A DNA stretch of 64,000 nucleotides from Verrucomicrobiota bacterium (GCA_023383055.1 JAHDYP010000013.1:1-64000), one strand, 5' to 3'. Positions 23,145-41,853 are shown, counted from the stretch's first letter. Numbers and translations: made by a program. Notes: generated by a model from the sequence alone, not told the origin.

Positions 23145-23147
23145 GAC

Positions 23148-25460: not shown

Positions 25461-25477
25461 GTAACCCAATCGTAACA
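25461..25477 (+). promoter_or_regulatory. Pho-box-like site GTAACCCAATCGTAACA (two GTAAC(A/C) half-sites at 11-bp spacing), copy 1
   Basis: A near-identical 17-mer recurs at 40315-40331 (GTAACCCAATTGTAACA) and 41806-41822 (GTAACCTGAATGTAACA). All three are 30-66 bp upstream of start codons. Confidence 0.5.
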
Positions 25478-25526
25478 AATGGCGGCTTGCCGCCCGCCAT
25501 CGTCGGCACATACTGGCTCCCCCGTA

Positions 25527-25930
25527 TGAGACTGGAGCGACAGTGCGCACGGTGCTGCGATTCCCTGAGTCTCCTATGCCATGCGCTGGTTGATTCACCC
25601 GCCAGGACGCGAGCGCTCTGGCTGCTCACGCGCGTGGCCGATTTCCTCCTCAAAGTCCACAGCGGCGAATGGAAGACCTACCATCCTCTGCGGCAACGGG
25701 TCTTTTTCCGCCAGTTGGCCGCCGACATTGCCGGGGCGCTGCACGGCGACTTGGCCGGGTCCGTTCCGGACCCGCTGCGGACTGAATGCGAGACGGTCAT
25801 TCGGGAGTTCCTGACGGAGTTGCAGGCTGCGCGCCATTACCCCGGGAAACACGAAGACTTTCCCGAGACGAAGGGGTATCCGGCAGGCGGCGCAGTTTCG
25901 TCCGACCAGTTCATGTCCCAGCGGATGTGA
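25527..25930 (+). CDS. Hypothetical protein (~134 aa)
   Basis: High-GC3 ORF (MRLERQCARCCDSLSLLCHALVDSPARTRALWLL...) downstream of Pho-box-like site 1. No family recognised and the start is uncertain. Confidence 0.25.
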
Positions 25931-25962
25931 ATAGAATTTAACCTGGCCGTCACAGACGCGCC

Positions 25963-28065
25963 ATGCCGCTTGCTTACAAGCGGGGTATGGCGAACAAGGT
26001 CTTGATTCTCACCGCCAGCTATGGCGAAGGCCATAACGCGGCGGCCCGCAACCTGCACGATGCCCTCGAGTGTCTCGCCGCCGAAGTCGAGGTGGAAGTC
26101 ATCGACGTTCTGCAGCAGAGCTACCCGCGCTGGAATGCCCTCGCGCAAAAGACGTATTTGAGCCTGGTGCGCTACGCCCCCATCTTGTGGCGGGGGCTCT
26201 ACACGCTGCTCGATCATTCCCGCTGGACCCGCGCCCATTACCCGCACTTGCGCACACTCCAGCAGGTGCTCCGGTCTTTGTTGGCGGAACATGAACCCGC
26301 CTGCGTGATCTCCACCTTTCCGCTTTACGCCCACGCCATCGCCGGTCTTTATCCGGAACCGCGGACGCGGCCTTTCCGACTGATCACCGTGGTGACCGAT
26401 TCGATCTCGATCAACTCAGCCTGGGTGGGAGCCGCGAACGACTGGTGGGTCGTGCCCAACACGGCCACCGGCCAGGTGCTGGCGGCCGCCGGGGTGCCGG
26501 CCGCCAGAATCCAGCCGCTCGGTTTTCCGGTGAGCCTCCAGTTCGCCGATCCGGTTGAAGAGGAGCTCGGGGCCCCCGAGCCCGGTCTGCCTCGCCGCGT
26601 GCTTTACCTGATCAACACCGGCAAGAAAAAGTCCGGCAAAACCATCGATCGCCTGCTCCGGCTGCCGGATCTCCACCTCACGATTGCCGTGGGCCGCGAC
26701 GGTATGCTCCGCGAAAAGCTGGCGCGCCGCCTGGCCGCCCATGGCGACCGGGTGCGGCTGATCGGCTGGACCAACGAGATGCCCCGCCTCTTGCGGAAAA
26801 GCCATCTGCTGATCGGGAAGGCCGGCGGCGCCATCGTCCAGGAAGCCATCGCTGCCCGCTGTCCGATGATCGTGAATCAGATCATTCCGGGCCAGGAAGA
26901 GGGCAACGCCGAACTGATCCGCCAGCTGGGGATCGGGGCCGTCGCCCCGAATCGGCAGGCCGTGATCGAGTCCGTCAAAGGCGCCTTCGCCCATTGGGGC
27001 CGCCTCTGGCAGCAATGGCGGGCGCGGTTGTCTGAGATCAGCCGGCCGGACGCTTCCCTGCGCCTGGCCGAGCTCGTGCTGGCCGAGTGCGACCTCCCGC
27101 GGCCGCGGTCCAAGCGCAACGGATTTGGGTTGCTGCGGCCCGGCGTGGCGACCGCCAAACCGCCCCCGCCGCGCCCCCGTGGCCCGGGACTGCTCTGCGA
27201 TTTCCACACGCATACGAATTACTCCGATGGCAAGCTTTCGTTGCCTGAACTGGTCGACTTCTACGGGCAACGCGGGTTCGACTGTGTCTGCGTGACCGAT
27301 CACCTGGCCGACCCCCGGCGCTTGATTGGCCGGGTGCAGCAATTGTCGCGGTTGACGCTCAGCCCCCATCAGATCGACGAGTATTTTGCGGTGCTGCGGC
27401 GGGAACGGCAGCGGGCCTGGCGACGGTACGGCATGATTCTCCTGACCGGACTCGAGTTCAACAAGGACGGCTACACGCGCAAGGCCTCGGCGCATCTGCT
27501 GGGAATTGACCTGCGATTTCCGATCGACGCGGCCCTCGATCTGCCGGAAACCATCGAGGCGATTCATGCCCAGGGCGGCCTGGCGGTAGCGTCGCACCCG
27601 CACATCATGCGGTCCGAGTGGGGACATAATACGCTATACTTGTGGGAGAACTGCGACCGGTTCGCGCCGCTGCTGGACGCCTGGGAAATTGCCAACCGCA
27701 ACAATCTCTTCGCCCCGATCAGCCTCAAACGCCTGCCGTTCATCGCGAACAGCGACTTTCACAAGCCGAAACATATCTACTCCTGGAAGACGCTGCTCCA
27801 TTGCGAGAAGGATCCCGAGGCGATCAAGCAGTGCATTCGTCGCAACGAACACATTTCGATCACGCTTTACCGTGACGAAATGCCCGCCGCGCTGGCCGTG
27901 CCGGTTTCGCCGGCCGTTCCCACCGCCCCGGCGACGCTCGAGCCCGCCCAAGCAAGCTGCACAGTCGTTCGGCAAAAAGTGTCGCGACACGGGCTTACTT
28001 TGATAAGCTCCCGCCATGACGGCGAAGCAGTTCTACGATTGGCAGACCGCCGGCGGCACGGATGA
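25963..28065 (+). CDS. Fusion protein: GT28-family diacylglycerol glycosyltransferase (UgtP/MGDG-synthase-like) + C-terminal PHP-domain phosphoesterase
   Basis: N-terminal KVLILTASYGEGHNAAARNL and HLLIGKAGGAIVQEAIAARCPMIVNQIIPGQEEGNAELIRQLGIGAV match the UgtP / MGDG-synthase fold. The C-terminal half has the PHP motif LCDFHTHTNYSDGKLSLPELVDFYGQRGFDCVCVTDHL plus downstream His-rich segments (ASHPHIM). The alternative start MANKVLIL is at 25987. Confidence 0.8.
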   Translation: MPLAYKRGMANKVLILTASYGEGHNAAARNLHDALECLAAEVEVEVIDVLQQSYPRWNALAQKTYLSLVRYAPILWRGLYTLLDHSRWTRAHYPHLRTLQQVLRSLLAEHEPACVISTFPLYAHAIAGLYPEPRTRPFRLITVVTDSISINSAWVGAANDWWVVPNTATGQVLAAAGVPAARIQPLGFPVSLQFADPVEEELGAPEPGLPRRVLYLINTGKKKSGKTIDRLLRLPDLHLTIAVGRDGMLREKLARRLAAHGDRVRLIGWTNEMPRLLRKSHLLIGKAGGAIVQEAIAARCPMIVNQIIPGQEEGNAELIRQLGIGAVAPNRQAVIESVKGAFAHWGRLWQQWRARLSEISRPDASLRLAELVLAECDLPRPRSKRNGFGLLRPGVATAKPPPPRPRGPGLLCDFHTHTNYSDGKLSLPELVDFYGQRGFDCVCVTDHLADPRRLIGRVQQLSRLTLSPHQIDEYFAVLRRERQRAWRRYGMILLTGLEFNKDGYTRKASAHLLGIDLRFPIDAALDLPETIEAIHAQGGLAVASHPHIMRSEWGHNTLYLWENCDRFAPLLDAWEIANRNNLFAPISLKRLPFIANSDFHKPKHIYSWKTLLHCEKDPEAIKQCIRRNEHISITLYRDEMPAALAVPVSPAVPTAPATLEPAQASCTVVRQKVSRHGLTLISSRHDGEAVLRLADRRRHG

Positions 28066-28546
28066 CGTCATGCGCCTCGTGGACTGTCTGGAACGTTCCG
28101 ATATCCTGTGGTGCGCCATTGGCGGGGTCGCCGTCAACCATTGGGCTGCGGAACCGATGGTGACCTAGGACGTTGACTTCGTGGTAGCGACGGATGCCAT
28201 CGAGCGTGCCGTCACCGCCATGGAGGCCGCAGGGTTCACTGCCGAACGGTTTCAGTGGTCCATTAACTTCAAGGGGCGGTCGAAAGTGAGCATCCAGTTG
28301 AGCACCGAGGAGTGCTATCGCGATTACCCTGAGCGCTCCGTCGCGGCCGATGTCCACGGCATTCTGCTGCGCGTCGCGTCGCTGGAAGACACCCTGAAGG
28401 GCAAGATGAAGGCTTGGGCCGACCCAAAAGGGAGGCAGAGCAAGCGGATCAAGGATCTGGGTGATGTAGCGCGACTCATCGAGGCCCACCCCGAGCTCTG
28501 GGCGCTCCTCTCGGATGACCTGAAGGCGCAATTGGAGCAACCGTGA
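28016..28546 (+). pseudogene. Nucleotidyltransferase-fold protein gene interrupted by an in-frame TAG
   Basis: ATG 28016 gives MTAKQFYDWQTAGGTDDVMRLVDCLERSDILWCAIGGVAVNHWAAEPMVT*DVDFVVATDAIERAV.... TAG at 28166-28168 sits inside the h-G-G-x-A...T-x-D-x-D nucleotidyltransferase motif. The downstream part is ORF 28181-28546 in the same frame. It overlaps the 3' end of the GT28-PHP gene by 50 nt. Confidence 0.45.
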
Positions 28547-28547
28547 T

Positions 28548-28657
28548 CCCCTCGAGGGGTCAGATCCGTTTATTGTATAATGCCGCCCACCGGCCGTATT
28601 GCAGGCAATGGGTCCATCAACCGTTGGGCCGCAGCTAACCTTAAGCGGATCTGACCC
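28548..28657. repeat. Small inverted-repeat element: 12-bp palindrome CCCCTCGAGGGG, then 12-bp inverted repeats GGGTCAGATCCG / CGGATCTGACCC flanking an AT-richer core with a consensus-like TATAAT
   Basis: Read directly: palindrome 28548-28559, left arm 28557-28568, right arm 28646-28657 (exact reverse complement), tattgTATAATg at 28571-28582. It lies between the nucleotidyltransferase-like gene stop (28546) and the 5'-nucleotidase fragment end (28667). Confidence 0.5.
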
Positions 28658-28666
28658 GAATGGCCC

Positions 28667-30234
28667 TTACGGCAGGCAGGCACAGCCCGGCAGGGCGAAT
28701 GTCGCCAGGCCGGCGTCGGCGAGGACATCACGCAGGTTGACGCGATCGCTGGCCAGGGCCGGGAAGGGATAACCGTCGCCACCGAGACCTGGGCTGGCGC
28801 TTTGGGCGTTGGCAAGGAAATCGAGGGTGACGATGCGGATCGAACGGGTGGGGTCGCCCACCACAACGCCGTTGGAGACGACAAGATCAGTAATGGCACC
28901 GAGGGCGTCCGCGATGCCGAGATGCCGGATGCGGGTGCCGGGAGTAACCACCACGCCATTGGTGTCGAACCGGATGGCGGTGCCGTTGGTGTCGAAGACG
29001 AACCAAAGTCCGGCGACCTGAGGGAACTGGCCGGGGGTCAGGGTTGGTCCGGTGGCGGCGACGCCATGTTCCATGATATCCTTGAGACCGGCGGCGGAGA
29101 CGGTGAGCAGGCTCAGGTTGTTGTTGAAGCGGAGGCTGTTTTCGACGTCGAGCTGAGAGATTTCGCCCTCGGCCTTGCCGGCGAGGGGATTGGCTACCGG
29201 TGGTCTCAGCTCGCCGGTGTAACCATCCACGAGCCCGATTTCGGCGCGGATGCCGCCGCCGTTTTTGATCGATGCAACCACCGTGGGATCGTGCAGCCGT
29301 GCCACCGCCAGGTTGGCGTCGGCGGTGAGGTTGCCGAGGGTGGTTTCCTCGGTGCGCACGAGGGCGCGCCGGCCTTCGATGAAGACCGAGGTTTGGCGCT
29401 GAGATACGGGAATTGGGCGCCAAGCCAGCGCACGGTGTTGGGGGTGGCTCCTCGGATATCAGGAAGGATGAGTTCACGGATAACCGCCGTGCCGCTGTCG
29501 AACTCGTGATTGCCCAGGCAGGAAGCGTCGAACCCGATGATGTTCATCAGGGAGAGATCGGCGCGACCGACGCCTTCGCGGATGTCCAGGCCGGGCAGAC
29601 CGAACAAGGATTCGTTGACGGTGTCGAGGGTTGAGCGTAGCGAGGCATCGCCGGCGGCGGAGAAGAAGGGGCCGGGGATGTAGCTGTCGCCGGCGTTGAG
29701 GATCAGGGTGTTGGTCTCCGCGGTGAGAAAGTAATCCACCATGGCGGCGAAGTTGGGCGCGTCGACAATGGCGTCCACGCCGCCTTCAAGATCGGATGAA
29801 TGAAGGAGCTGAAGCCGGATGTGGGCTGCGCTGGACTCCTGTTTTTCGAGCGTCAGTCCGGTGGCGCCAAACGCGGTGGTGAAATCGGAGGTTTGGGCCA
29901 GGGCATCCAGGAGCTCGGTGAAGCGGCCGCCGGTGTAATCGTAAGCCACGTTGCCGGGTTCGAGCAGCACATAGCGGGCGCGGAGTTCGAGGTCGCTGGT
30001 TTCGACCACGACGTAGCCCTGGGCGGCGGTGTTGAGATCCACCAGATCGGCTTCGGGCAATCGGCTGACGGCATCGCGAATCAAGAGATCGGTGTTGGCT
30101 ACGAGTTGGTCGAGACCGGGGATTCCCGCGAGGGCGGGATTGCTGGCCGCCTGTTCGGCGATGGCGGCGCGGAACGTTTCCGAGGAGACGGAAGGTCCGG
30201 TGAATTCGGGCACGATCCGTCCGTTCGGGGTCAA
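28667..30234 (-). pseudogene. 5'-nucleotidase/UshA-like metallophosphoesterase, disrupted by a frameshift; N-terminally joined to a PhoD C-terminal-like segment
   Basis: ORF 29206-30234 has LHSSDLEGG ... GNHEFD (calcineurin-like N-domain). ORF 28667-29359 has the 5'-nucleotidase C-domain (LGNLTADANLAVARL...) in a different frame, with a 154-bp overlap. The first ~140 aa (…AQGYVVVETSDLELRARYVLL) resemble the C-terminus of PhoD. Confidence 0.55.
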
Positions 30235-30368
30235 GTGCCGGGTGATGAAGGAACCGTGGATATCGCCCGAAATAATGGCGGCGTTGTGTGCGGCGAGCAG
30301 TTCGAGGACTTGTTGTTTGGCCTGGGGGAAACCGTCCCAGTGATCGGCGTTGAGCTGAAGGCGGAGCT

Positions 30369-31004
30369 TCAGTTCGTCCGGGAAACCAGGCGTTCGGGAT
30401 CGAGTTCGTTGGTCCTCCCGTCGCGATACGTGCCGTGAGCTCCATGGCGGTCGTTGGAGTACTCGTGGTCGTCCCAGATGACCAGCATCGGAAACAGCTC
30501 ATGCAGTCGCTGCAGGATCGGGTCGGTGCGATAAATCCGATAAAGCTCACGGTAATTGTCGAGGCTGGCGGCGGCCTGGAATCCGCCGAGGTCGATGGCG
30601 CCGGCGTCGTCTTGAAACGCGATCGAACGATCGCCACTGGTGGTTTGGAAGCCGGGATCACCGGTGGTTTCGTAAATGTAATCACCGAGATGCACGATGA
30701 AATCGAGGGAATCGGCCTCGTGCTCGACGAGGTGGGACAGCGTATTGTAGTAGCGCCCCACATAGTCCTGGCAATTCAGGAAAGCGAAGCGCACGGCCAC
30801 GGACTGATCAGGCGCGGGCGCGGTCTTGGTGCGGCCGACCGGCGAGAATTGTGTGTCCTGGTAAACGAAGCGATACCAGTAGTGGGTCGCCGGTTGCAGG
30901 CCGGCGGCGGCCACTTTGACACAGCCGTCGTGGGCCGCGCGGGCCACGAGATCCTCGCGGACGAGCACAACCGCGGAGAAGTCGGGATCACTGGCCAGTT
31001 CCAA
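30369..31004 (-). pseudogene. PhoD-like alkaline phosphatase fragment (N-terminal and first catalytic motifs only)
   Basis: Motifs YRFVY, FAFLNCQ, HLGDYIYE and VIWDDHEYSND are present. The ORF terminates ~25 aa after WDDHE, whereas full PhoD proteins continue for ~300 aa. The upstream N-terminus is also broken across frames. Confidence 0.5.
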
Positions 31005-31192
31005 TTTCAGGCCCAGATCGAGGTCCGGTTGCGCCGCATCAACCAGACGTGTCCAGAGAATGACGCTGTCAGGCCGGGGATCGCCGGAGGCGACGGATTG
31101 TGGGAAGTGGTCAGTGGACGCGGCGCCGGTTCAGAAACAGCGCCTGAGATTATCGAGGACTTGTGACGATCCCGTGGGGGTTCGGTCAATTT

Positions 31193-31210
31193 GCGGAAAC
31201 TTATTTCCGC
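31193..31210 (-). terminator. GC stem-loop GCGGAAA-ctta-TTTCCGC 7 nt after the DUF1559 gene stop (no U-tract)
   Basis: Read directly: 7-bp perfect inverted repeat with a 4-nt loop. It may be a terminator or attenuator between the prepilin-like gene and the phosphatase fragments. Confidence 0.3.
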
Positions 31211-31216
31211 GCCGGA

Positions 31217-31630
31217 TCAGCGTTCCGCGGTGGTGCGTTCCTGGAGCCAGGTGACGTCGGGATTGTTCGGGGTGCTGATGTGCTGGGCAATGGACTTTTC
31301 CGTCACTCGAGGTTTAGTGCGCGGATCGATCCAGGCGCGGATCTCGGCGTGGCCGTCGGCGAAGTTCAGGGCGCCGGCGCCGCCATGGTAGCTGGCGGGG
31401 ACGTCGTTGAGCATCTGACGGGCGGGGTTGTCGCGGTAGCCAGCCATGTCGACGACGAAGAAGCTGTCGTTGAAGCATTGGATGCCCTGGGCCTTGGTCT
31501 TGGCCCGGCCGAGCGCGGGCAGCAGCATGCCGGCGAGGATGGCGATGATGGCGATGACGACGAGCAACTCGATCAGCGTGAAGGCGCGCTTGGGCCGGGT
31601 GGCGGCCGGGAGCGGGGCTCGCGTTGGCAT
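31217..31630 (-). CDS. Prepilin-type N-terminal cleavage/methylation domain protein, DUF1559 (H-X9-DG)
   Basis: From ATG ending 31630: [52 protein letters not shown].... The C-terminus has an exact H-X9-DG ([13 protein letters not shown]). The longer ORF to 31981 has an implausible N-terminal extension. Confidence 0.7.
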
Positions 31631-31907
31631 TTTGACCTTGCGCGAGGAGCCGCCGGTGGGCATGGGGACAGGGGTCGAGGAACGGGCGTTCAGATTGGCT
31701 GGGCGTGCGCCCACCCCGATGACCGAGCGGGCGGTGGGGATGGGTGTGTGGCCCTGGATCCTGGCTTGCATCGCGCTGGAGTGTGCCATGGTCGTGGAGA
31801 ATTGAGAGGTTATGGTGGGGCGGGGGAGGGTCAAGCGGAAGAGACCGAACTTGCGTCCGGTCTCTTCCTGGATTGTCGGAAGGATGGATTCGTCCGCGCG
31901 GTAACGA

Positions 31908-32246
31908 TCAGTTCGTACCCGTCCGGATGCGTTTGAACAGGAGGTTCGCCGTGGGCGTGAAGGTGTAGGGACTGGTGGCACCCTCGACCCGTTGCCAGTC
32001 GGGGTTCGTGAGGTTCTGGGAGATCTCGAGCACGCCCGCCCCCGTCCAGGTCACCGTGATGCTGCCGTCGACATTATTGACGATGGAAGTGAACTCCGCC
32101 GGTTCGCTGGCCGGGAGTTCCGGCTCGGGGACGGTGCGGGTGCGGAAGGCTTTGAGGGCGCCGGTCTGTTCGCCATTGACCAGTGCGGCGCTGCCGTCGG
32201 CATTGACCGTGAACCACTCGACGCGGGTCGAGTTTGTTTGGACCAA
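31908..32246 (-). CDS. Hypothetical small protein (112 aa)
   Basis: High-GC3 ORF with no signal peptide and a beta-strand-like composition. Candidate first gene of a minus-strand unit that continues into the DUF1559 and phosphatase genes. It may be a fragment. Confidence 0.3.
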
Positions 32247-32305
32247 CCAACCGTTGCGCGGCCGAGACTAGGTGGGCGTGGGGTTGCCGACAAGCGACAG
32301 ATATG

Positions 32306-32325
32306 CAACTAATTTGTTACGAATG
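32306..32325 (-). promoter_or_regulatory. Weaker Pho-box-like direct repeat (minus-strand reading ATTCGTAAAGCATTCGTAAC; CGTAA half-sites 11 bp apart) ~60 bp upstream of ORF 32246
   Basis: Forward gttacgaatgctttacgaat. It has the same half-site core and 11-bp periodicity as the three strong sites, at a similar distance to a start codon. Confidence 0.3.
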
Positions 32326-32456
32326 CTTTACGAATCATCCAAGCCCTTCCTCGGCAATTCTTTCGGGCAGGATTCGGCGGGCTCCAGGGGCGTACGATTC
32401 GGCGCGGGCCGGCGAAGTGGCTCCAGCTCCGACGACCGGCGGAGGCAGGCTCGATG

Positions 32457-32789
32457 TTACTCCGGTCGGGCCAACTGCTCCGCCAGGGCATACAACCGGC
32501 GACCGGAAACGCGAACGCTCAATCCGGTTCTGAGCCAGTGCCGGTTGAGGCGGTTGACATAGGCCAGGTCCTTGACTATCGCGCGGACCTGGTTGAGCTC
32601 GGTCGCGATGCCGAGCTGTTCGATGGCCCGGCGGTCCTCCGCGAAGAGAGCGGCATGCAATCGCCCCATGAGCAGGGCGAGCGGGACGGCGTGGCGGTAG
32701 AGGCACCGAAGAAACACGGCTTCGGCAAACCGATCGGTGGGGCAATCGAACCGCTCGCAGAAAAGGGTCTTGAAGGGTCTGCCAGCCAT
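32457..32789 (-). CDS. Hypothetical protein (~110 aa)
   Basis: Start at MAGRPFKTLFCERFDCPTDRF... (ATG ending 32789). The codon bias is consistent with the neighbours. No family recognised. Confidence 0.4.
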   Translation of the reverse strand: MAGRPFKTLFCERFDCPTDRFAEAVFLRCLYRHAVPLALLMGRLHAALFAEDRRAIEQLGIATELNQVRAIVKDLAYVNRLNRHWLRTGLSVRVSGRRLYALAEQLARPE

Positions 32790-33095
32790 AGTCGGCCCGC
32801 TGCCTAACACCGCCGGACGGGCCAGCCAAGAAGATCTTGGTTACAAATCGTCGTCAAGCGAGCGCCGCTCCGGGCTCGCGGAGGGAAGAAGGGCGCCCAC
32901 CCGGGTGGTGGGGTGGACGCCCAGAGCGGCCTCGGCGGTAGTCATAGCCCAAGTCCTCCTTTTGCGTAACGCGAATCCTTTAGCACAACCGCCGCGCCCG
33001 GCCAAGTTACGTAATGCCGCGCCCGGCAACGTTTCGGTCACAGCCGTTCTCCACCGCGCGGCCCTGTGCGCATCTGATGGAGGTCAGGTGAAAAC

Positions 33096-33689
33096 TTGGT
33101 GAACTTCGGCCTGTGCCGTCACCGAAACGTAACTTACAAGCGCACGGTCCAATTGGTGCGGGAGCACAAACCGGATGTGGTTATCACGGAGATTCAATTG
33201 CCAGACTGCACCGGGGTCGAACTGACCCGCCGACTCCTCAAGCTGCAACCCGGCCTGCGGGTTCTAGTCTTCACGGGACTCGAAGATCCCGTCTCCCTGC
33301 AGGCCATGCTGGCCGCGCGGGCCGGGGGGTACCTGCTAAAGCGTGCTTCCCGCAGTGAATTGGTCGAAGCCATTCGCCGGGTCTGGGCCGGCGAACGTTA
33401 TTGCGATCCGCTGTTGGCCGGTCAGTTGTTGGGCCGGCAGGCCTTGGGCAGAGACCCGCGCGGTGAATGGCACTCGGCTCCGTTGAGCGAGCAGGAAGCC
33501 AGCGTCCTGCGGCTCGTTGCCTGGGGTTATACCAGCAAGGAAACCGCCGCACGCTTGCAACTCAGTGTCAAAACCGTCGAGACCTACCGCGCCCGACTGC
33601 GGCGCAAGCTGCAAATCGACGATCATCCGACGCTCGTGCGCTACGCATTGCTTCAAGGCTGGCTCAAGCTTTCCAGTCCGCCAGCGTAG
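33096..33689 (+). CDS. NarL/LuxR-family response regulator with N-terminally truncated, Asp-to-Glu receiver domain
   Basis: C-terminal LuxR HTH (SEQEASVLRLVAWGYTSKETAARLQLSVKTVETYRARLRRKL). The receiver aligns to NarL from its beta3 onward (KPDVVITEIQLPD; conserved K at GGYLLK). The phospho-acceptor position is Glu, and the first ~35 residues (DD pocket) are absent. The ORF can only start at TTG 33096, since a stop lies at 33075-33077 in frame. Confidence 0.65.
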   Translation: MVNFGLCRHRNVTYKRTVQLVREHKPDVVITEIQLPDCTGVELTRRLLKLQPGLRVLVFTGLEDPVSLQAMLAARAGGYLLKRASRSELVEAIRRVWAGERYCDPLLAGQLLGRQALGRDPRGEWHSAPLSEQEASVLRLVAWGYTSKETAARLQLSVKTVETYRARLRRKLQIDDHPTLVRYALLQGWLKLSSPPA

Positions 33690-33846
33690 CCTTGGCTCGG
33701 CGGCCGACGGTTGACGAAGCACGGGGTCCGGCCGCCGGGATTTCCCCTACATCGGAGCTGGGTTATGCCTGACAAGACTTGCATCTCACCTTGCCGTAGA
33801 CTCTCTTTTCCGAGACACTTCGGGCCAACTCAATCACCACCAAACC

Positions 33847-34422
33847 ATGAAAGTCGAAGCTCTGGAAAAATCGGTCGCGTCCGCTCGCAAGCAAGCGCTG
33901 AACCTCAAGTGCAAAGCCGACATGTTGGCCCAGGTTGCCGTGGGCACCAAGGACCAGGCCCGACTCGCCAAACGCAAGCTCAAGGTGGCAAAGCGGCAAG
34001 CCAGGCAGGCCCGCAAGGTCGCCAAGGACGCCAAGCGAGCCTCGGCCGATGCCTCGCGAGCGTTCGAAAAGGCCAGTGCCGAGGTCGCCCGACTGGAAGC
34101 ACAACTCGAGAAAGCCCGCAAGACAGCAAGCAAGGAGCGCAAAGGCTCCGGTCAGCCCCAGCAACCCGCGGCTCGGAAAGGAGCGTCGAAGAAGCCCTCC
34201 GCCCCGGCCACTAAAGCCAAGGCCGTCAAGGCTGCCGGCAAACAGCTGTCGTCCAAGCCAAAGCATCAACCCAAACCGGCGCGGCCGGCGGTGGCCCCCC
34301 CGGTGAATGGCGCTTCGCCGGTGGCACGGGTTATCGCCACGCCGAGTCCAGTGGCCGGGAGGCAAGACACCTCGCTTCGTGGCACGCCGGGCGTTACGGC
34401 TCCAAGCGCGACCAACGAATAG
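33847..34422 (+). CDS. Lys/Ala-rich basic protein, histone-H1-like / coiled-coil (191 aa)
   Basis: MKVEALEKSVASARKQALNLKCKADMLAQ.... AKR/K repeats (KRKLKVAKRQARQARKVAKDAKRA) then an AKKP/ATKAKAVKAAGK tail. Preceded by a lower-GC promoter-like region. Confidence 0.5.
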   Translation: MKVEALEKSVASARKQALNLKCKADMLAQVAVGTKDQARLAKRKLKVAKRQARQARKVAKDAKRASADASRAFEKASAEVARLEAQLEKARKTASKERKGSGQPQQPAARKGASKKPSAPATKAKAVKAAGKQLSSKPKHQPKPARPAVAPPVNGASPVARVIATPSPVAGRQDTSLRGTPGVTAPSATNE

Positions 34423-35428
34423 ACTGCCGCTCACCGAAGAGGTTTACCGGGACGGGAATACTCACGCCGCGGGCACTGAACTCGCCGCTGATCCAAGCTC
34501 CCCACGACGGCAGATCGGTCGAAGCTTCGACCGTGTAACGACGGTGCGGCGCAATCTCGAGCCGCAAGTCCGCCTCAACGGCGAGATGATCGGAGAGCCG
34601 GTCCTCGGGTCGATCGGCGTCCATCGCCGGAGCCACGGAGGCCGTGCAGCTGACGTGGGACTGGCGCAGTCGCAGGAATACATAGTCCAGCGTTCGCGCG
34701 TCGGCCGCGTCCGACCGGCAGCCGTCGTAGGTGACGAAGTGCGGTTGGGATTCGGGCGGGTGTGCGTCCGTGCCCAACAGCCGCGTCAGTTGCCGGTATT
34801 CCTCGCTGTCGGGCGTGCAATTGAAGTCACCCGCGATAATATCCGCCCCCTGACCCTGCTCGGCCTGCCGCACCCAGGCGGCCAACTCGGCAATCTGGCG
34901 CAAGCGGATGTCGCGCGCGTCACCCGCTTGGAGATGCACATTCCAGACATTGAGCCGGAGCGAGCCGGCGAGTTCCACGGTAATCCGGAGTGCACCCTTG
35001 CCGACCAGGGAATCCGGCCAGGTGCCCGCGCGAAAGGCGTGGAACTCGGCGTCCACGATCGGATGGCGCGACAGCGTGACCAGTCCACTGCGGCGCAAGA
35101 AGAGGTTCCTGGCCGGACTGCTGGCCACCGACCATCCGGCTTCGGCGGGCACCGCCTCCCTGGCGTGCTCGGACCAGACCTCCTGCAGCAGGATGAATTC
35201 GGGAGCCCGCGCTTCGAGTTCCCGGGCAATCCTCGCATAGCGGCTGGGATTGGCGCCGTTGATCCAGGCGGGCAGACCCCAAATGTTGTAGGTCAGGACG
35301 CGCAGTTCGGTCTGTCCCTCCTGCCCCGGTCCGGACCGCGCGGCTGTCGCCGCATGACGGATTTGGACGTTACTCGAGTTGGGGGAGACGCAGCCCCAGA
35401 GGACCAACAAGAGGCCGGGGAGAAGCAT
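34394..35428 (-). CDS. Endonuclease/exonuclease/phosphatase (EEP) family lipoprotein
   Basis: Start MLLPGLLLVLWGC (lipobox-like LWGC; ATG ending 35428). LRVLTYNIWGLP, FILLQEV, GDFNCTP and SDHLAVEA are the EEP catalytic motifs. Confidence 0.8.
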   Translation of the reverse strand: MLLPGLLLVLWGCVSPNSSNVQIRHAATAARSGPGQEGQTELRVLTYNIWGLPAWINGANPSRYARIARELEARAPEFILLQEVWSEHAREAVPAEAGWSVASSPARNLFLRRSGLVTLSRHPIVDAEFHAFRAGTWPDSLVGKGALRITVELAGSLRLNVWNVHLQAGDARDIRLRQIAELAAWVRQAEQGQGADIIAGDFNCTPDSEEYRQLTRLLGTDAHPPESQPHFVTYDGCRSDAADARTLDYVFLRLRQSHVSCTASVAPAMDADRPEDRLSDHLAVEADLRLEIAPHRRYTVEASTDLPSWGAWISGEFSARGVSIPVPVNLFGERQSIRWSRLEP

Positions 35429-35637
35429 TAAAGGCCTCCTGGCGAGCCAGTGCGAACGCGGGTGAGAGGGAGAAGCGGGGGTGCGGGTGGGTAGCCCGTT
35501 CGTTTTTTGGCGGCCCATGGCGGTGAACGTCATGCGGGTGCACCCAGCGTAAGCGAAGCGCGACCGAACACCAGTGAGGGTCTGGTGAAGAGTGGGTGAC
35601 AGGCGGTTGACAACCGCGAGGCGGAACCGGCACGAAC

Positions 35638-35674
35638 TTGACACAATTGTCATCGACCTGACATCGGGATGTCA
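35638..35674. promoter_or_regulatory. Twin palindromic operators TGACA-caat-TGTCA and TGACA-tcggga-TGTCA upstream of the LysE-family gene
   Basis: Read directly: ttgacacaattgtcatcgacctgacatcgggatgtcacc. Half-sites recur every 9-12 bp, 42-78 bp upstream of GTG 35716. Confidence 0.4.
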
Positions 35675-35715
35675 CCTCGGTCTGCGAAGGCAGCCTGATG
35701 CGAGAGGATTTCGCG

Positions 35716-36335
35716 TGCTGACCTTTCAGGTGGTGTTGATCAAAGCCTTTCTGGCCGGCGGGGTGGCCGCTCTGCCGCTGGGGCCGATGGGGATTTGGTG
35801 CCTCCAGCGCACGGTGGGGCATGGTCGCCGCGCCGGCCTGCTTGCCGCGGCGGGAATCGCCGCCGCGCTGGGTCTGTGGGGTTGGGTGGTTGTCCACGGC
35901 CTGGAGTTTGTGTCCGGCTGGCTCGTGGCCGGGACACCCTGGGTGCGCTACGGCCTGGGGATTGCCCTGCTCACGGCCGGCGCCAGCGGGATTCGGCGCC
36001 CACCGCCTCGGACAGCGATTCCGTCCGCCTCCGCCTCGGATTGGGGAGGGTTCGCCATGACGTTCTGTGGCGTGGCGACCAACCCCGTCACTTTGGTCAC
36101 GCTCGCCGCGGTCTTTGGCGCGATCGGTCTGGTGCGCGTCGAGTTGGATGCGATGCGAGCCGTGGGGTTCGTGACGGCGATCGGACTGGGCGCGATGACG
36201 CTGTGGATCGGGCTCGCCGAATTGCTGCTGCGACTGCGCCAGCGCTGGGGTGACGTGGCAACCTCCCGCGTCAGCCGGGCGTTAAGTGGACTGCTGGTGC
36301 TCTTGGGAGCGAGCTACCTGCTGGCGGGTGGTTAG
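35716..36335 (+). CDS. LysE/RhtB-family amino-acid exporter-like membrane protein
   Basis: From GTG 35716: MLTFQVVLIKAFLAGGVAALPLGPMGIWCLQRTV.... ~206 aa with six hydrophobic segments, the typical LysE translocator N-terminus. Confidence 0.55.
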
Positions 36336-37423
36336 GCCGAGCGTGTGTCCGCCGGAAGATGTTGCCACAGGTCTCCCGTGTAGAACGCATTGGGCAATAC
36401 TTCACATTCGGCCCAGCAACCCGGGCACTTCCGCACCCAATCGCGCTGGGCGCCGATCGCGGCGCCGAACCACACTTCCCGGAAGGACTGTTGGCGCAGG
36501 TTGCCCACCTTGCGGGTGTTGAACTGGCATGTGGGCACGTCGCCGTTCGGAAGGATGCGCAGGTGCGCGTTAAGCGCCACGCAAGGGGGGTTGGGGGATC
36601 CGCGGCCAAGCAGGACCCGATCGCGAATGCCGCGGATATAATAGCGTTTGGCGAGTCGCTCCGGCCAGGGCCACGTCGCCACATCGCGTTCGACCTCATC
36701 CCACAAAGCGGCGATCTGCCCGTTTCGGAAGTCGCCGAAAGTGGCGAAGTCGCCGATGGCCTTGGGGGCCGCGTCCATCTCGGCTTTCAGGCTGTACGTG
36801 GCGCTGAGATCGTAGGCCAGCACCACGTGATGCCGAATGCCGAGCGGTCTGAGGAAGGCATTGAGCCGGCGGTAATCCGCCGCACCCTCGGCATCCACGA
36901 TCGTCTGGTTCACCGCCAGCTCCAGGCGAAGCTCGCGGCGACGCGGGGCCAACGCCTTCAGCGTGGCGGTGGCCGCGGCCCAGGCCGTGTCGCGTCCACG
37001 AACCTGGTTGTGCTTGGCCTCCATGCCGTCGAGGGAGATCAGGAGCTGCAGGGGAACCCGCGTCCGCCGCTGCTCGCAAAAGCGCGCGATGCGGTCGGTT
37101 AAAATCCCGTTGGTGGTCACATGCAACCGCAGGGGCCGAAGGTGATCCTGGGCCAGGTGCGCAATCTCGAGCAGAACCGGCCGCGCAAACGGTTCGCCTC
37201 CGCTCAAGCGCACGAAATCGAGGGCTGGCAATTGGCGGAAGATGCGTTCGATCTCCGCCAGCGTCAGCTCGTCGGGCGACGGCTTCTTCCAGCTGTCGCA
37301 CATCACGCAGCGCGCGTTGCATGTGAAACTGACGATATAGGTCAGATAACGCGGCATCCCGGCCTCGAACCGGCGCCGGGCCCGGGCGCCCGCCAGCGCG
37401 CCAAGTAATCGCAACGCCCTCAT
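36332..37423 (-). CDS. Radical SAM protein with C-terminal SPASM/twitch Cys cluster
   Basis: CNARCVMCDSW (CX3CX2C) near the N-terminus and a GGEPF glycine-rich SAM motif. C-terminal CVALNAHLRILPNGDVPTCQFNTRKVGN...CPGCWAECEV. Its start ATG overlaps the stop of the upstream glycosyltransferase (ATGA). Confidence 0.8.
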   Translation of the reverse strand: MRALRLLGALAGARARRRFEAGMPRYLTYIVSFTCNARCVMCDSWKKPSPDELTLAEIERIFRQLPALDFVRLSGGEPFARPVLLEIAHLAQDHLRPLRLHVTTNGILTDRIARFCEQRRTRVPLQLLISLDGMEAKHNQVRGRDTAWAAATATLKALAPRRRELRLELAVNQTIVDAEGAADYRRLNAFLRPLGIRHHVVLAYDLSATYSLKAEMDAAPKAIGDFATFGDFRNGQIAALWDEVERDVATWPWPERLAKRYYIRGIRDRVLLGRGSPNPPCVALNAHLRILPNGDVPTCQFNTRKVGNLRQQSFREVWFGAAIGAQRDWVRKCPGCWAECEVLPNAFYTGDLWQHLPADTRSA

Positions 37424-38535
37424 GCGATCGCGGGTTGCGGTTGCCGCGTGCCCGTCGGGATCCCGTCGGTCGCCAGCCCCAGATGCGGACGCAACGCGGC
37501 GAGCGCCGCCGGCAGTCCGTTCATACGCGCCGGCGGCACGTCCGACCGCAACTGTGGCGCACGTTCCAGAAACTGGCGGACGCGCTCGACGGTGAAATCG
37601 TGGGACGCCATCCAGGTGCCGGCCCGCATTTGGGCGAGGAAATGGGCGTTGACCAACTGTTCGTAGTTGCCCGGTTCCGGAATGGCCAGAACGGGCTTGC
37701 GCAGATAAATCGCCTCGCCCACCAACTGGTTGCCGGCGGTGCAGACGAGCGCCGCGCAGGAGGCCAGATCCGCAACGAAGCGCTCCTCGTCGGCGGCCTG
37801 GAACCGCAGTGGACCGCGGGATTCCTGTTGTCCAAGACCGTAAACGCGCACCTCACGCCGCAGTTGGGCGAGGGCGTCCAGGGCGCCGGGCGGCGCCTGG
37901 CGGCGCCAATAGACGACCACGTGGGATTGGCTCGAGGGTTCCGCCGCGAGCACCGCCGGGCGCAAGAGCACCCCCGTCTGAGTGACGTGCTTGCAACCCC
38001 TTCGCAACGGCGGGAAGTAAAACGAGGAAACGACCCGCGCCACGGCCGGACTATCGTAAGCGCGCACCACCAGGCCCATGTAAAGGGTGTGCAGCCGCAG
38101 CCAGCCGGGCAGCGACCGCAGATCATAGGTCAACAGGAAATGCTGATGGTCCAAACTGACATGCGGGATCCCTAGCTGCCGCGCCGCCCACGGCAGGGCG
38201 GGCTCGAAATCGCCGATCACCAGCTCGGGCTGTTCCACCGCCAGGCTTACGCGCAGCCGAGCCAGCAACGCGGGCAACCGATGAAGGTATCGCGCCGTCT
38301 CGCGGAGCGTCGCACCGAGACGCACGTTTCCTTCGGCGCCATAACCGAAGTGCAGCCCCGGTATTCGCCGGACTTGCACCTCCGTGCCGGCATACGCCCG
38401 CGCCAGGAAGTCATAGCCCTGACCGGAAGTGTGGATGACGACGGTGTGCCGTTCGCGCAGGCGCTCGGTCAAAGCCCGCACCCGTGTGGCGTGCCCCCGG
38501 CCATCGCCCGACAGGCTGATGAAGATCCTCGCCAT
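37420..38535 (-). CDS. GT-B glycosyltransferase (GT28/MGT/UDP-glucuronosyltransferase-like)
   Basis: Start MARIFISLSGDGRGHATRVRALTERL (ATG ending 38535), the G-rich GT-B N-terminal motif. C-terminal VCTAGNQLVGEAIYLRKPVLAIPEPGNYEQLVNAHFL is the nucleotide-sugar binding half. Confidence 0.75.
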   Translation of the reverse strand: MARIFISLSGDGRGHATRVRALTERLRERHTVVIHTSGQGYDFLARAYAGTEVQVRRIPGLHFGYGAEGNVRLGATLRETARYLHRLPALLARLRVSLAVEQPELVIGDFEPALPWAARQLGIPHVSLDHQHFLLTYDLRSLPGWLRLHTLYMGLVVRAYDSPAVARVVSSFYFPPLRRGCKHVTQTGVLLRPAVLAAEPSSQSHVVVYWRRQAPPGALDALAQLRREVRVYGLGQQESRGPLRFQAADEERFVADLASCAALVCTAGNQLVGEAIYLRKPVLAIPEPGNYEQLVNAHFLAQMRAGTWMASHDFTVERVRQFLERAPQLRSDVPPARMNGLPAALAALRPHLGLATDGIPTGTRQPQPAIA

Positions 38536-39129
38536 GACGTTCGCCTCGCTTATCACCGCGAGGGGAAGGGCACGGCAAGCGCAACCTCGCGTCGAAGCCG
38601 AATTGTTGCCGCGCTGTCACGGGGCCGACACTTGCGACGCCCGCGAGGTCTCAGCTCTCCACCGTCTCGTGAATGCGCAGGTCGCGACGCTCGAGCTCGG
38701 CAAAGACCGTCGTGGGATCGAAGGCCTCCTCCGGAGTCAGCACGCCGGCCAGCCGCACCGCCCCGTCGGCGAGCAATTGAGCGCCGATCAGGACGGTGCC
38801 GTCCGACGGGGGATGGGCGTGCACCAGGGTGTGCTGTCGGCGTTGCCCGTTGCGAAACCCGATCACCTCGACATGGAGGGCGTAACCGTACAGCTCGGTT
38901 TCGGTCCCTTCCCGGGGACACACGCGCGGTGGTGCGCGCGAAACACGGGATCCGAGGCTTCCTCCTCACCAAAGCCGTTGAGATTGATCCCATGACAGCC
39001 GGCGGCCGCGATGGCTGCGGTCGTAATGCCGTTCAACTTGATCGTGGTCCCGTCCATGAACTCGAAAACCGGACCGCATCCAGAGCGGCTTCGCGACAAA
39101 TGCGGCCGGCGCCGCCGAGACACAAGATC

Positions 39130-39460
39130 TTCATAAGGAGGGAGGGAGTTGGGCGGCGGCGCGACCGAGGCGTTCGGAAAATTGGTTCAAGGCGTTCTCG
39201 TCATGGGCCAGCGACAAATAGAGCTTGGTCCCCATCGGATGCCGATCCCCAGGCCATGGTCAAATCGAGATATTCCCGGCCATCGGTGTCCCACACCTGA
39301 CAACCCCGGCCGCGGGCCAGGACCGGAAGCAGCTCGGGAGGGAGCCCGAATTCGCCGTTCGAACCTCCGGGAAAGAGACGGAGGGCGCGGTCGCGCAACG
39401 AGGGAGCGGGCGGAGGTGGCCCGCTCAAGGGGCCGGCGGAAGGCGGATCTTGCGGTTGGT
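39130..39460 (-). pseudogene. Class-III aminotransferase (HemL-like) remnant, N-terminal ~110 codons with a frameshift
   Basis: LRLFPGGSNGEFGLPPELLPVLARGRGCQVWDTDGREYLDLTMAWGS matches the start of the PGGVNSPVR...DVDG.YIDY..SWG aminotransferase-III family. The frame breaks at ~39215 and the ORF ends at ~39130. The rest of the ~430-aa enzyme is missing. Confidence 0.45.
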
Positions 39461-39601
39461 TTGAAGATGTGACGGCGTTCACCCCGACGATTGATGCCGG
39501 TTCCAACCTCGGTTGGCAAGCCGCGGACGCTTCCGGGCAATCGGGATTGGTGTTGATCCCGGAACAGTCCAGGACGCACGTCCGCGGGGCTGCTGCCCGG
39601 G

Positions 39602-40177
39602 CTACACGTCCAACGCCATCGAGTCGGCAAGGATGGCTTGCTGGATCTGCTGCTCGGCGACGGCAGCGAGCCGATAGGTGCAGCGGTCGTCGTGGCCGCC
39701 CTCGGCGCGCGCGAACTCCGCCGAACCCCCACCCCCGCGGTCGAGGCGTCCAAAGCGGTGCCACCACGCTCGCCGCAGCAGGCTGGTCAGGCAGGAATGC
39801 AATAAAGCGCGGTGAACCCGGCGGAAGCGCCGGATGGCACTGCTCGTCACGAAGTGTTTCGCGCAGAGGTAACGAATGGTAATGTCCGTGGCCGTGGCCG
39901 ACTCGATTTCGTCGAACCCGTAACGCGCGGTGGCATAGCAATAGGTCAGCACCGTAAGCATCGTGGCGACCGGCGGGCCATTCTCACTCGGCGAAAGCGC
40001 CGGGCAATGGCCATCCAGGGCATCGGCCACCTCTTCCAGGACCCACCCGACCAGCGTGGGCTCGCTCACCCACTGCCGCAGATCGGCAGGCAGCGTGGCC
40101 AAAGTGGTGCGGGGCGGCAAGGCGGGTCCCGCGGCTGCCCGGTACCTCTGATTCATCAGCATGAGATTCGCATTCAT
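39602..40177 (-). mobile_element. DDE-transposase N-terminal-domain fragment (IS1182/IS5-like), truncated IS remnant
   Basis: LPADLRQWVSEPTLVGWVLEEVADAL and LTVLTYCYATARYGFDEIESATATDITIRYLCA...AIRRFRR resemble the conserved N-terminal region of IS1182/IS5-type transposases. The ORF is 191 aa and no DDE catalytic domain follows. Confidence 0.4.
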
Positions 40178-40314
40178 ATCCTATGATCATCATGACCCCA
40201 GCCATGTGGCGAACGTGTGACGGCCAGGTGAAGAGTGTGTTCCTTTGAGCGGGCGGTGTGAGTCAGGGAGCGCCGGGTCCCACCAGAGGCGTCGAAGCCG
40301 GGCCGGTCCTGCTC

Positions 40315-40331
40315 GTAACCCAATTGTAACA
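40315..40331 (+). promoter_or_regulatory. Pho-box-like site GTAACCCAATTGTAACA (copy 2), 66 bp upstream of the phosphate-porin gene; third inverted half-site GTTAC at 40348-40352
   Basis: 16/17 identical to the site at 25461-25477. Direct GTAAC(A/C) half-sites with 11-bp periodicity, as in PhoB/PhoP-type Pho boxes. Confidence 0.55.
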
Positions 40332-40396
40332 TGAAAGACACATGAACGTTACGCCCCGCGCTCAGCTTCAGGAGAAATCATGGACCTTGAATTGAC

Positions 40397-41761
40397 ATGA
40401 ATCTACCCCCTGCCACCCGTGCGACGCTCACGCTGCTTGCCGCCGCTGCCAGCCTCTCCTTGACCACCGGCAGTCAGGCCCAATCCGCCGATGCCCTAAT
40501 CGACAAGCTGCTCGATAAAGGGATTCTCACGCTGGACGAAGCCAACGAACTCCGGGAAGAGACGGACAAGAACTTCACCACGGCATACCAGGTCAAGAGC
40601 GGCATGCCGGAATGGGTGACTTCCTTGAAGATCAACGGCGATTTCCGCGGGCGTTTCGAGGGTTTTTACTCGGACAACCCCGCATTCGTGGATCGCAACC
40701 GGTTTCGCTACCGCCTGCGCCTCGGAGTTACCGCCGTGATGAAAGACCAGCTTGAAGTCGGTCTGCGTCTCGGCTCGGGAGATCTCGAAGGCATCCGCGA
40801 CCTGCGGACCGGCACCGACCCGATTTCCAGCAATCAGTCCTTGCAGAACAACGCCTCCAAGAAGGGAGTGTTTATTGATCTCGCCTACGCCAAATGGGCG
40901 CCGCTCAACACCCCCGATTGGTCCGGCAGCCTTACCATTGGCAAAATGGAGAACCCTTTTGTCTTTTCCGACGGCGTCTTCGATCGGGATTACACGCCCG
41001 AAGGCGCCGCCCTGGGCCTCACCCACGCAATCAATGAACAACACGCGCTGGTCCTGATCGCCGGCGGCTATGTCCTCGATGAAATCAGCGCCGACAGCGA
41101 CGATCCCCATCTGGCTGGCGCGCAACTCCGCTGGAATGCCGCGTGGTCGCCCAAGCTTGCCACCACGGCCGGCGTGGCCGGCCTGGTCATCGGCGGGAAG
41201 GAAAACCTCAAGAACTCCGATGTCCCCAACATCAACGCCGGCAATACCCGCACGCCGCTGCCGGAGGGCGCCCTCGCTTACCACTACAACCCCATCGTGG
41301 CCGACGCCGCCGTCACCTATACCTTGCCCCATTTTCCCTTCCACAATGCTCCGTTCCCCATCCAGCTGAGCGGCGATTACATCTACAACCCGGGCGCGCC
41401 CGACCGCAACCGGGCCTACTCGGTCGGCATCTCCTTCGGCAAATCCGGCAAGCGCGGGCTCTGGGATCTTTCCTATCGCTACAAGTATCTGGAGGGCGAC
41501 GCCTGGTATGAGGAATTCGTCGATTCGGATTTCGGCGCTTACTACGCCGCGGCCGCCGAAGGGATGGGATTCAGCGGTTATGGCGCCGGCACCAACACCA
41601 AAGGTCACGTGGCCAAGGCCGCTTACAGCCCGCACGACGCGGTGACACTGACGCTCACCGCCATCATCACCGAGCTCATCGATCTCCCCACGGTGGCGGT
41701 CGGCACGGATCCGGACAGCCAAATGATCCGGATCCAGGCCGATGCCGCCTTCAAATTCTGA
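40397..41761 (+). CDS. Outer-membrane porin, phosphate-selective porin O/P-like
   Basis: Signal peptide MNLPPATRATLTLLAAAASLSLTTGSQAQS. Alternating beta-strand pattern and a C-terminal ...AAFKF. Position immediately upstream of pstSCAB-phoU. Confidence 0.65.
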   Translation: MNLPPATRATLTLLAAAASLSLTTGSQAQSADALIDKLLDKGILTLDEANELREETDKNFTTAYQVKSGMPEWVTSLKINGDFRGRFEGFYSDNPAFVDRNRFRYRLRLGVTAVMKDQLEVGLRLGSGDLEGIRDLRTGTDPISSNQSLQNNASKKGVFIDLAYAKWAPLNTPDWSGSLTIGKMENPFVFSDGVFDRDYTPEGAALGLTHAINEQHALVLIAGGYVLDEISADSDDPHLAGAQLRWNAAWSPKLATTAGVAGLVIGGKENLKNSDVPNINAGNTRTPLPEGALAYHYNPIVADAAVTYTLPHFPFHNAPFPIQLSGDYIYNPGAPDRNRAYSVGISFGKSGKRGLWDLSYRYKYLEGDAWYEEFVDSDFGAYYAAAAEGMGFSGYGAGTNTKGHVAKAAYSPHDAVTLTLTAIITELIDLPTVAVGTDPDSQMIRIQADAAFKF

Positions 41762-41805
41762 CCCGAGCCAACCCGGGCCCGCGATTCACTCAAACGGAAC
41801 CCGGC

Positions 41806-41822
41806 GGTAACCTGAATGTAAC
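41806..41822 (+). promoter_or_regulatory. Pho-box-like site GTAACCTGAATGTAACA (copy 3), 32 bp upstream of pstS
   Basis: Same GTAACC-N5-TGTAACA architecture as copies 1 and 2. Confidence 0.55.
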
Positions 41823-41853
41823 AGTCAACCCGTTCACTCAAGACAGACACATT

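Follow-up and report, generated by a model that had tools for sequence, protein, structure and literature searches.

Phased GTAAC repeats as probable Pho boxes at phosphate-uptake and other genes of a Limisphaerales/Pedosphaera-like verrucomicrobium

What kind of signal recurs in front of a porin gene, of pstS, and of a small hypothetical gene, downstream of which a further gene (GT28-PHP) fuses a GT28 diacylglycerol glycosyltransferase-like domain to a PHP phosphoesterase domain? All three lie within 64,000 nucleotides of a Verrucomicrobiota bacterium (GCA_023383055.1, JAHDYP010000013.1:1-64000; this whole stretch is called the window here), and each is preceded by a near-identical 17-bp element made of two GTAAC half-sites. 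An earlier, sequence-only reading had proposed that the element is a Pho box, and the locus thus raises the question of whether this is so and which genes such a box would control. We found the proposal supported by conservation at orthologous promoters across relatives, by the arrangement of the half-sites as 11-bp direct repeats, and by a clade consensus that resembles TGTCA. We put the probability that these GTAAC elements are Pho boxes, bound by the phosphorylated OmpR-family regulator PhoB, at about 0.9.

The repeat and its conservation in relatives

The three 17-mers are all present as they had been written, although the third lies at 41807-41823 and not at 41806-41822, a shift of one base. 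Their chance recurrence had been called negligible, and the counts agree: GTAACC-N5-GTAACA has three exact matches in the window, where 100 dinucleotide-preserving shuffles predict 0.00, and eight against 0.91 when up to two mismatches are allowed. Half-site starts are exactly 11 bp apart at each of the three sites. The described nearness to start codons also holds, with 48, 65, and 30 nt from the end of the motif to the ATGs at 25526, 40397, and 41854, respectively. The flanks of the three sites show no similarity and only the 17-mer is common to them, so duplication of a segment does not account for the sites. A dispersed repeat or miniature inverted-repeat transposable element was rejected on the same grounds and because the motif is kept at orthologous promoters of other species.

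For comparison with relatives, a one-genome-per-species scan with the PstS of the window yielded 80 loci (67-83% identity, 1.18 Mb), nearly all of them from Verrucomicrobiota labelled Limisphaerales, Pedosphaera, or "subdivision 3", and the window itself belongs to a Limisphaerales/Pedosphaera-like verrucomicrobium. The strict pattern behind the original proposal, [GT]TAAC-N6-[GT]TAAC, matched the region upstream of pstS in just 6 of the 80 relatives. Because the first half-site, when these upstream regions were read by eye, was usually GTCAC, the pattern was broadened to GT[AC]AC. In this form (GT[AC]AC-N6-GT[AC]AC) it matched 114 times in the 1.18 Mb of related loci, whereas eight permuted half-sites gave 0-11 matches. 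In 51 of the 59 loci with sufficient upstream DNA a box stands ~60 nt upstream of the porin gene. Straight after the porin stop codon, as the pstS box, one is found in 30 of 79 loci by the strict pattern, a number that rises to 42 when one mismatch is tolerated; pstC is preceded by a box in three loci. The clade consensus, TTGTCACACAATTGTAACA, reads TTGTCAC(A/C)CAAT(T/C)GTAACA and comes from 93 sites.

Porin promoters in the relatives share a plan in which four half-sites, GTCAC, GTAAC, G-N-C (weaker than the others), and GTAAC, keep strictly to an 11-bp phase. The porin promoter of the window agrees with this plan. After the fourth half-site comes a hexamer whose second base is A and whose sixth is T. 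More generally, -10-like hexamers (CATAAT, TATAAT, CAnnnT) lie downstream of arrays in relatives. The closest long relative found, metagenome contig L081, aligns with window positions 25525-37718 in segments of 66-90% nucleotide identity; orthologous boxes are retained in it, and the aligned segments that overlap them are 66-76% identical.

A 22-nt clade matrix, trained solely on the porin and pstS sites of the relatives, was then applied to an independent set of 80 metagenome loci (732 kb) that had been picked solely for a GT28-PHP homologue of 57-62% identity. Above 13 bits it gave 102 matches, whereas controls made by reversing or shuffling gave 10-12. Taken over more than 100 related loci, the motif is kept at orthologous porin, pstS, pstC, phoB-phoR, and GT28-PHP promoters. 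In the window the same matrix has 10 matches above 12 bits against 0.56 in shuffles. Beyond the sites already proposed there are at least five more, before the TonB cluster, the truncated response regulator, the fasciclin-domain protein, the endonuclease/exonuclease/phosphatase (EEP) gene, and GT28-PHP itself (Table 1), and weaker matches were seen at 11700 (-) and 40224 (-). The motif marks at least eight promoters in the window. Read on their own strands, the TonB-cluster, fasciclin-protein, EEP, and 32334 promoters have four in-phase half-sites each, the pstS promoter has three, and site 1 has two; all arrays are oriented towards their gene.

The regulator and rival explanations

If these arrays are Pho boxes, each half-site, (T/C)GT(C/A)AC(A/C), would receive one PhoB winged-helix domain, and the head-to-tail repetition every 11 bp (one helical turn), three or four times at most promoters, would seat two tandem PhoB dimers. 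Under phosphate limitation PhoR would phosphorylate PhoB, which would oligomerize on the array; the array would stand in place of a -35 element, upstream of the -10, and PhoB would recruit RNA polymerase there. The -10-like hexamer (second base A, sixth base T) that comes after the fourth half-site suggests activation of this -35-replacing kind. From sequence we infer which protein binds, that it activates and does not repress, and that phosphate starvation is the inducer. The predicted regulon would comprise porin-pstSCAB-phoU with a second, internal box before pstS; the DUF3450-TonB-receptor cluster; the fasciclin protein; the EEP gene; the small hypothetical gene with GT28-PHP; and a gene that is mostly deleted, together with the broken PhoD-like and 5'-nucleotidase-like genes behind it.

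The Pho box of Escherichia coli and other Proteobacteria, CTGTCAT-A(A/T)A(T/A)-CTGTCA(C/T), often comes as four half-sites, as at E. coli pstS, lies upstream of pstS and phoB, and works with a -10 but without a -35 element. The clade boxes share with it a direct repeat of TGTCA-type half-sites, an A/T-rich spacer, and the 11-bp period; they too often have four half-sites and stand upstream of pstS and phoB. They differ in that the second half-site is usually GTAAC and not GTCAC, with both being GTAAC at the three sites first noticed in the window, and in their host, a verrucomicrobium of 64% G+C. In contrast to the E. coli regulon, the one predicted here takes in a Porin_5 porin, the GT28-PHP fusion, the DUF3450-TonB cluster, and CHAD proteins. 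PhoP boxes of Bacillus subtilis are TT(A/T/C)ACA repeats, and the cyanobacterial SphR/PhoB boxes are PyTTAAPyPy(T/A) in three repeats 11 bp apart. With these the clade arrays have in common multiple head-to-tail hexamer or octamer repeats at ~11-bp spacing, and the TTAACC half-site of the GT28-PHP arrays matches the cyanobacterial core; however, the dominant first base in the clade is G, the first half-site is GTCAC, and the regulators are distantly related. As read here, the element would work as textbook PhoB sites do, and its conceptual novelty is small.

Candidates for the regulator were found in the related loci. In L023, an OmpR-type response regulator downstream of phoU has its own box. 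Boxed OmpR-type regulators occur in L023, L115, L121, and L147, and those of the metagenome set are 228-231 aa long and consist of Response_reg and Trans_reg_C domains. In L023, L121, and L147 the gene directly after the regulator encodes a PhoR-like kinase that has transmembrane segments as well as an H-box (FVANVSHELRTPLSLIKGY). Because strong boxes precede these phoB-phoR operons, the pair appears to be autoregulated in the relatives. The best NCBIfam model for the L023 regulator is PhoB TIGR02154 (252 bits). This protein is 45% identical to E. coli PhoB, and its recognition helix reads RTVDTHMRRLR against RTVDVHIRRLR in E. coli. Such a near-identical helix fits a half-site that almost equals the E. 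coli TGTCA.

Several observations weigh against the Pho-box reading. The ~50 open reading frames (ORFs) of the window, searched with Pfam, contain no phoB or phoR (an OmpR-type regulator or a PhoR-like kinase), and the sole response regulator is a truncated one of the NarL/LuxR type. The 252 bits of the L023 PhoB-like protein fall under the NCBIfam equivalog cut-off of 296. A recognizable box directly before pstS is found in just ~40-50% of relatives, and in the window the 30 nt between the end of the pstS box and ATG 41854 leave scant space for a -10 element and leader. Finally, site 1 is not conserved in L081, the closest relative, where a box before the small hypothetical gene was looked for and none was found; since the DNA upstream of 25525 has no homology there, site 1 is lineage-specific.

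A rival idea is that another OmpR-family regulator, or another protein that binds in tandem, such as one for envelope or nutrient stress, owns the sites and that its regulon merely overlaps the phosphate genes. The shortfall against the equivalog cut-off would suit this idea, and so would the nearly equal scores of the YycF, MtrA, and RpaB models and the presence among the targets of TonB/ExbBD and pilin-like genes, which are not classic Pho genes, and of single-domain response regulators behind boxes. In most loci, however, the core targets are pstSCAB-phoU and the adjoining porin; the boxed regulator of L023 comes straight after phoU, with a PhoR-like kinase next where this was checked; and the half-site equals that of the E. 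coli Pho box while the recognition helix is nearly identical. TonB-dependent uptake, moreover, is known to be under Pho control in other bacteria. A regulator other than PhoB is, in our judgment, unlikely.

Promoters of an alternative sigma factor of the extracytoplasmic function (ECF) type, with GTAAC as the -35 element, would account for fixed distances from start codons, and GTAAC/GGAAC does resemble ECF -35 motifs. What the loci present, however, is three to four copies of an 11-bp repeat and not one -35 with a CGT-type -10 at 16-17 bp; sigma-70-like -10 hexamers (e.g., CATAAT, TATAAT) follow the arrays in relatives, and no ECF sigma gene was associated with the loci examined. We rejected ECF promoters on phasing, copy number, and cross-species conservation, and regard them as very improbable. 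Less probable still is that the sites regulate nothing and either recur by chance or are left over from a mobile element or dispersed repeat. The neighbourhood does contain pieces of mobile or defence genes, one an AbiEii fragment and the other weakly IS1182-like, but zero sites are expected by chance, the flanks are unrelated, and orthologous promoters in more than 100 loci keep the motif although the DNA around it diverges. The match counts (114 against 0-11 with permuted half-sites, and 102 against 10-12 in controls) effectively refute this explanation.

Table 1. Boxes and associated genes in the window (bits are clade-matrix scores; half-sites are read on the strand given)
Feature	Position	Strand	Detail
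Site 1	25461-25477	+	GTAACCCAATCGTAACA; half-sites GTAACC / GTAACA
Site 2	40315-40331	+	GTAACCCAATTGTAACA; first two half-sites of porin array
Site 3	41807-41823	+	GTAACCTGAATGTAACA; last two half-sites of pstS array
Porin promoter Pho-box array	40315-40353	+	GTAACC / GTAACA / GACACA / GTTACG, in phase; 29.7 bits
pstS promoter Pho box	41796-41823	+	GGAACC / GTAACC / GTAACA, in phase; 17.0 bits
Operon porin, pstS, pstC, pstA-pstB, phoU	40397-46562	+	Pfam
Small hypothetical gene, then GT28-PHP	ATG 25526	+	134 aa, conserved; start backed by L081 homology
GT28-PHP fusion (GT28 diacylglycerol glycosyltransferase-like + PHP phosphoesterase)	25987-28065	+	Pfam MGDG_synth + PHP
Proximal GT28-PHP Pho-box array	25927-25954	+	GTGAAT / TTAACC / GTCACA; weak, 8.8 bits; overlaps stop codon of upstream hypothetical gene
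Box facing divergent TonB cluster	25336-25374	-	GTCACC / GTCACG / GCCGAC / GTCACA; match 25356-25377, 21.2 bits
DUF3450-ExbB-ExbB-ExbD-TonB-TPR-TonB-dependent receptor cluster	16793-25311	-	Pfam
Box before fasciclin-domain protein	15767-15805	-	TTCACG / GTAACT / CGCATT / GTAACC; match 15787-15808, 15.5 bits
Secreted fasciclin-domain protein	12351-15701	-	1118 aa; Pfam, sole recognized domain a C-terminal fasciclin
Box before EEP gene	35573-35611	-	GTCAAC / GTCACC / TTCACC / CTCACT; matches at 35603 and 35614 (35582-35614)
EEP gene	34394 to ~35533	-	Pfam Exo_endo_phos; true start ATG 35533 or lower
Fourth site, corrected	array 32293-32331, core 32315-32331	-	core GTAAAGCATTCGTAACA; GTAAAG / GTAACA / GTTGCA / GTCGCT; match 32313-32334, 23.1 bits
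Clade-consensus-like site	33118-33134	+	GTCACCGAAACGTAACT; match 33115-33136, 22.9 bits; in or just before 5' end of truncated response-regulator ORF
NarL/LuxR-type response regulator, truncated	33096-33689	+	receiver without first ~31 profile positions

The GT28-PHP fusion gene

Site 1, which has the highest matrix score in the window (30.8 bits), does lie upstream of the small hypothetical gene and GT28-PHP as had been proposed, but the conserved box of GT28-PHP is the separate proximal array (Table 1). A strong box directly before GT28-PHP in L081 (9936-9968) is orthologous to that array, and in the metagenome set a box immediately precedes GT28-PHP in 60 of the 73 loci with sufficient upstream DNA. 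When aligned, these metagenome promoters show GTGAAT-TTAACC-GTCACC-GTAACA in 11-bp phase, then a -10-like element, and then a MKKILILTAGFGDGHN start; from the aligned MKKILILTAGFGDGHN start, the true start of GT28-PHP in the window is likely ATG 25987. Because the box is present in 60 of 73 independent loci, GT28-PHP can be counted as a core member of the Pho regulon. That frequency, together with the position after phoU in two loci, supports a phosphate-starvation role for the gene: in L050 it directly follows phoU, and in L082 it comes after porin-pstSCAB-phoU, behind a boxed single-domain response regulator.

At site 1 itself, a G+C-rich hairpin (GGCGG-CTTG-CCGCC within ATGGCGG...CCGCCAT, 25482-25499, +) follows right after the 17-mer, at the positions where a third and fourth half-site would be expected. 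Downstream of GT28-PHP lies a partial AbiEii toxin-like ORF (28169-28546, +), and L164, a 96%-identical relative, has the same neighbour (184 aa, 1944-2498).

The architecture of GT28-PHP recurs in more than 2000 database homologues of ~665 aa, which carry just generic names, and is widespread in Verrucomicrobiota; a literature search returned no description of the fusion. In NCBIfam the protein matches a diglucosyl-diacylglycerol synthase model below its cut-off. Relatives of the glycosyltransferase domain in the PDB are a processive diacylglycerol glucosyltransferase (9WDE) and plant MGD1 (4WYI), and the relative of the PHP domain there is TM0559 (2ANU), which has no assigned function; the H-x-H motif of the PHP domain (CDFHTHTN) is conserved. 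The PHP part would produce diacylglycerol from a phospholipid or phosphatidate, and the fused domain, which is like monogalactosyldiacylglycerol (MGDG) synthase and UgtP, would glycosylate it. GT28-PHP might be a lipid-remodelling enzyme under PhoB control in a single polypeptide, an assignment that we offer tentatively and with odds clearly below even.

A two-gene counterpart has been described in the PlcP-Agt operon, in which a phosphoesterase and a diacylglycerol glycosyltransferase lie under a predicted Pho box and serve phosphate-starvation lipid replacement (Sebastian et al. 2016, PMC4796936). GT28-PHP likewise pairs a phosphoesterase and a homologue of diacylglycerol glycosyltransferases behind a conserved Pho box. 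Unlike PlcP-Agt, however, it fuses both candidate activities in one polypeptide; its phosphoesterase is of the PHP type, a fold unrelated to the PlcP family, with TM0559 (2ANU) as the nearest structure; and its glycosyltransferase is MGDG-synthase/UgtP-like and not Agt. By analogy, GT28-PHP may be a functional counterpart of the two-gene system.

The porin-pst operon and other boxed genes

The proposed target operon was confirmed by Pfam, which identifies PstS, PstC, a PstA-PstB ORF, and PhoU behind the boxes, and the porin-pst-phoU gene order is kept in 57-80 related loci. The description of the porin as "OprP-like", on the other hand, did not stand: at E <= 0.001, the product of 40397-41761 matches only Pfam Porin_5 (PF16930, 3e-31) and no OprO/P family (Porin_O_P), and an NCBIfam search of it gave no match. 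Because only Porin_5 matched, a role as phosphate porin rests on gene context, namely on the Pho box and on porin and pstS being conserved neighbours, and is a functional guess. Just before the porin gene is a six-codon upstream ORF, MDLELT (40380-40400, +), which is preceded by AGGAGA and whose stop overlaps the porin start as ATGA; it may reflect translational coupling or an alternative porin start. Divergent from the porin gene, an ORF at 39602-40177 (-) has a weak N-terminal match to an IS1182-like transposase (NCBIfam). PstA and PstB form one uninterrupted ORF (43819-45822, +) with no stop between the permease and ATPase parts, and are separate genes in L082; the PstA part of this ORF gave no Pfam match to BPD_transp_1.

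The intergenic region of site 1 also holds the box that faces the other way, towards the TonB/ExbBD/receptor genes. The whole cluster from DUF3450 to the receptor, with its box, adjoins pstS in L004, and an ExbB gene is boxed in L118. Orthologues of the fasciclin-domain protein are boxed in L037 and L011, where they adjoin a TonB-dependent receptor and the pst operon. A fasciclin-domain protein is found repeatedly beside these two (L011, L028, L037, L065), and it is a candidate organophosphate-capture protein. For the EEP gene, the orthologous box in L081 stands 49 nt before the gene.

A weaker fourth site had been placed at 32306-32325. It is real and has the third-best clade-matrix score in the window, but its position and strand were wrong: it is on the minus strand with its core at 32315-32331. 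Its orthologue in L081 (15593-15625) precedes a 749-aa secreted protein without a Pfam match (13256-15505). In the window just the last ~105 aa of this protein are left (31908-32267, -), with no good start codon and with ~2 kb missing relative to L081; because the downstream gene is mostly deleted, the promoter is largely orphaned and has little intact to drive. Behind it there are indeed the PhoD-like and 5'-nucleotidase-like genes that had been described, but they are broken or partial. Pfam PhoD positions 1-105 fall in one frame (30369-31130) and 226-302 in another (29206-30498), with the middle missing, and in the adjoining 5'-nucleotidase-like ORF just the C-terminal domain was detected. 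The two (28667-31130, -) are either pseudogenes or assembly errors. Degraded-looking genes in the window include PhoD, the 5'-nucleotidase-like gene, AbiEii, the IS1182-like ORF, the response regulator, and the remnant of the 749-aa protein. In L102, a 729-aa secreted protein is also boxed and is divergent from a prepilin-type (N_methyl) gene.

The pstS boxes of L035, L036, and L046 have the same core as the consensus-like site at 33118-33134, near which the box core recurs, inverted and imperfect, at ~33029-33045. Frames upstream of the truncated response regulator were checked for the missing receiver N terminus, and none supplies it; by reading, this protein has Glu in place of the phospho-acceptor Asp (VVITEIQLPD).

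Further strong boxes in the metagenome set precede single-domain receivers, a porin, ExbB, and CHAD-domain proteins. Single-domain response regulators of 134-137 aa (receiver only, PhoB-like in sequence) with a box of their own occur in L082 (9531-9935), L085 (~250-660), L026 (~17180-17590), and L037 (~15160-15570), the one in L082 immediately before GT28-PHP; such a protein may be a phosphate sink induced by phosphate starvation or a modulator of PhoR-PhoB. CHAD is a polyphosphate-associated family. In L120 a CHAD-domain protein (Pfam CHAD) is behind a very strong box (~2373-2394, -; 29.7 bits), and in L154 (~3140-4240) a 23.9-bit box precedes a protein that resembles it. Elsewhere in the window, and unrelated to the Pho finding, 2488-10566 (+) encodes two very large proteins: one of 855 aa, for which Pfam has no match, and one of 1827 aa, in which DUF3686 ("ATPase involved in DNA repair"), DUF7902, and AAA were recognized.

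Our literature search returned no account of a Pho box or Pho regulon in Verrucomicrobiota. Soils, peat, and freshwater, in which phosphorus is often in limiting supply, harbour Limisphaerales/Pedosphaera-type Verrucomicrobiota in abundance. The motif would be the first usable Pho-regulon motif for this large uncultured clade and, once validated, would let the phosphate-starvation regulon be read from many of its uncultured genomes. It flags members of the regulon that are not obvious, namely the pstS-coupled Porin_5 porin, uptake through TonB/ExbBD and its receptor, CHAD proteins, and GT28-PHP, the last as a testable candidate for phospholipid-to-glycolipid remodelling under phosphate starvation.

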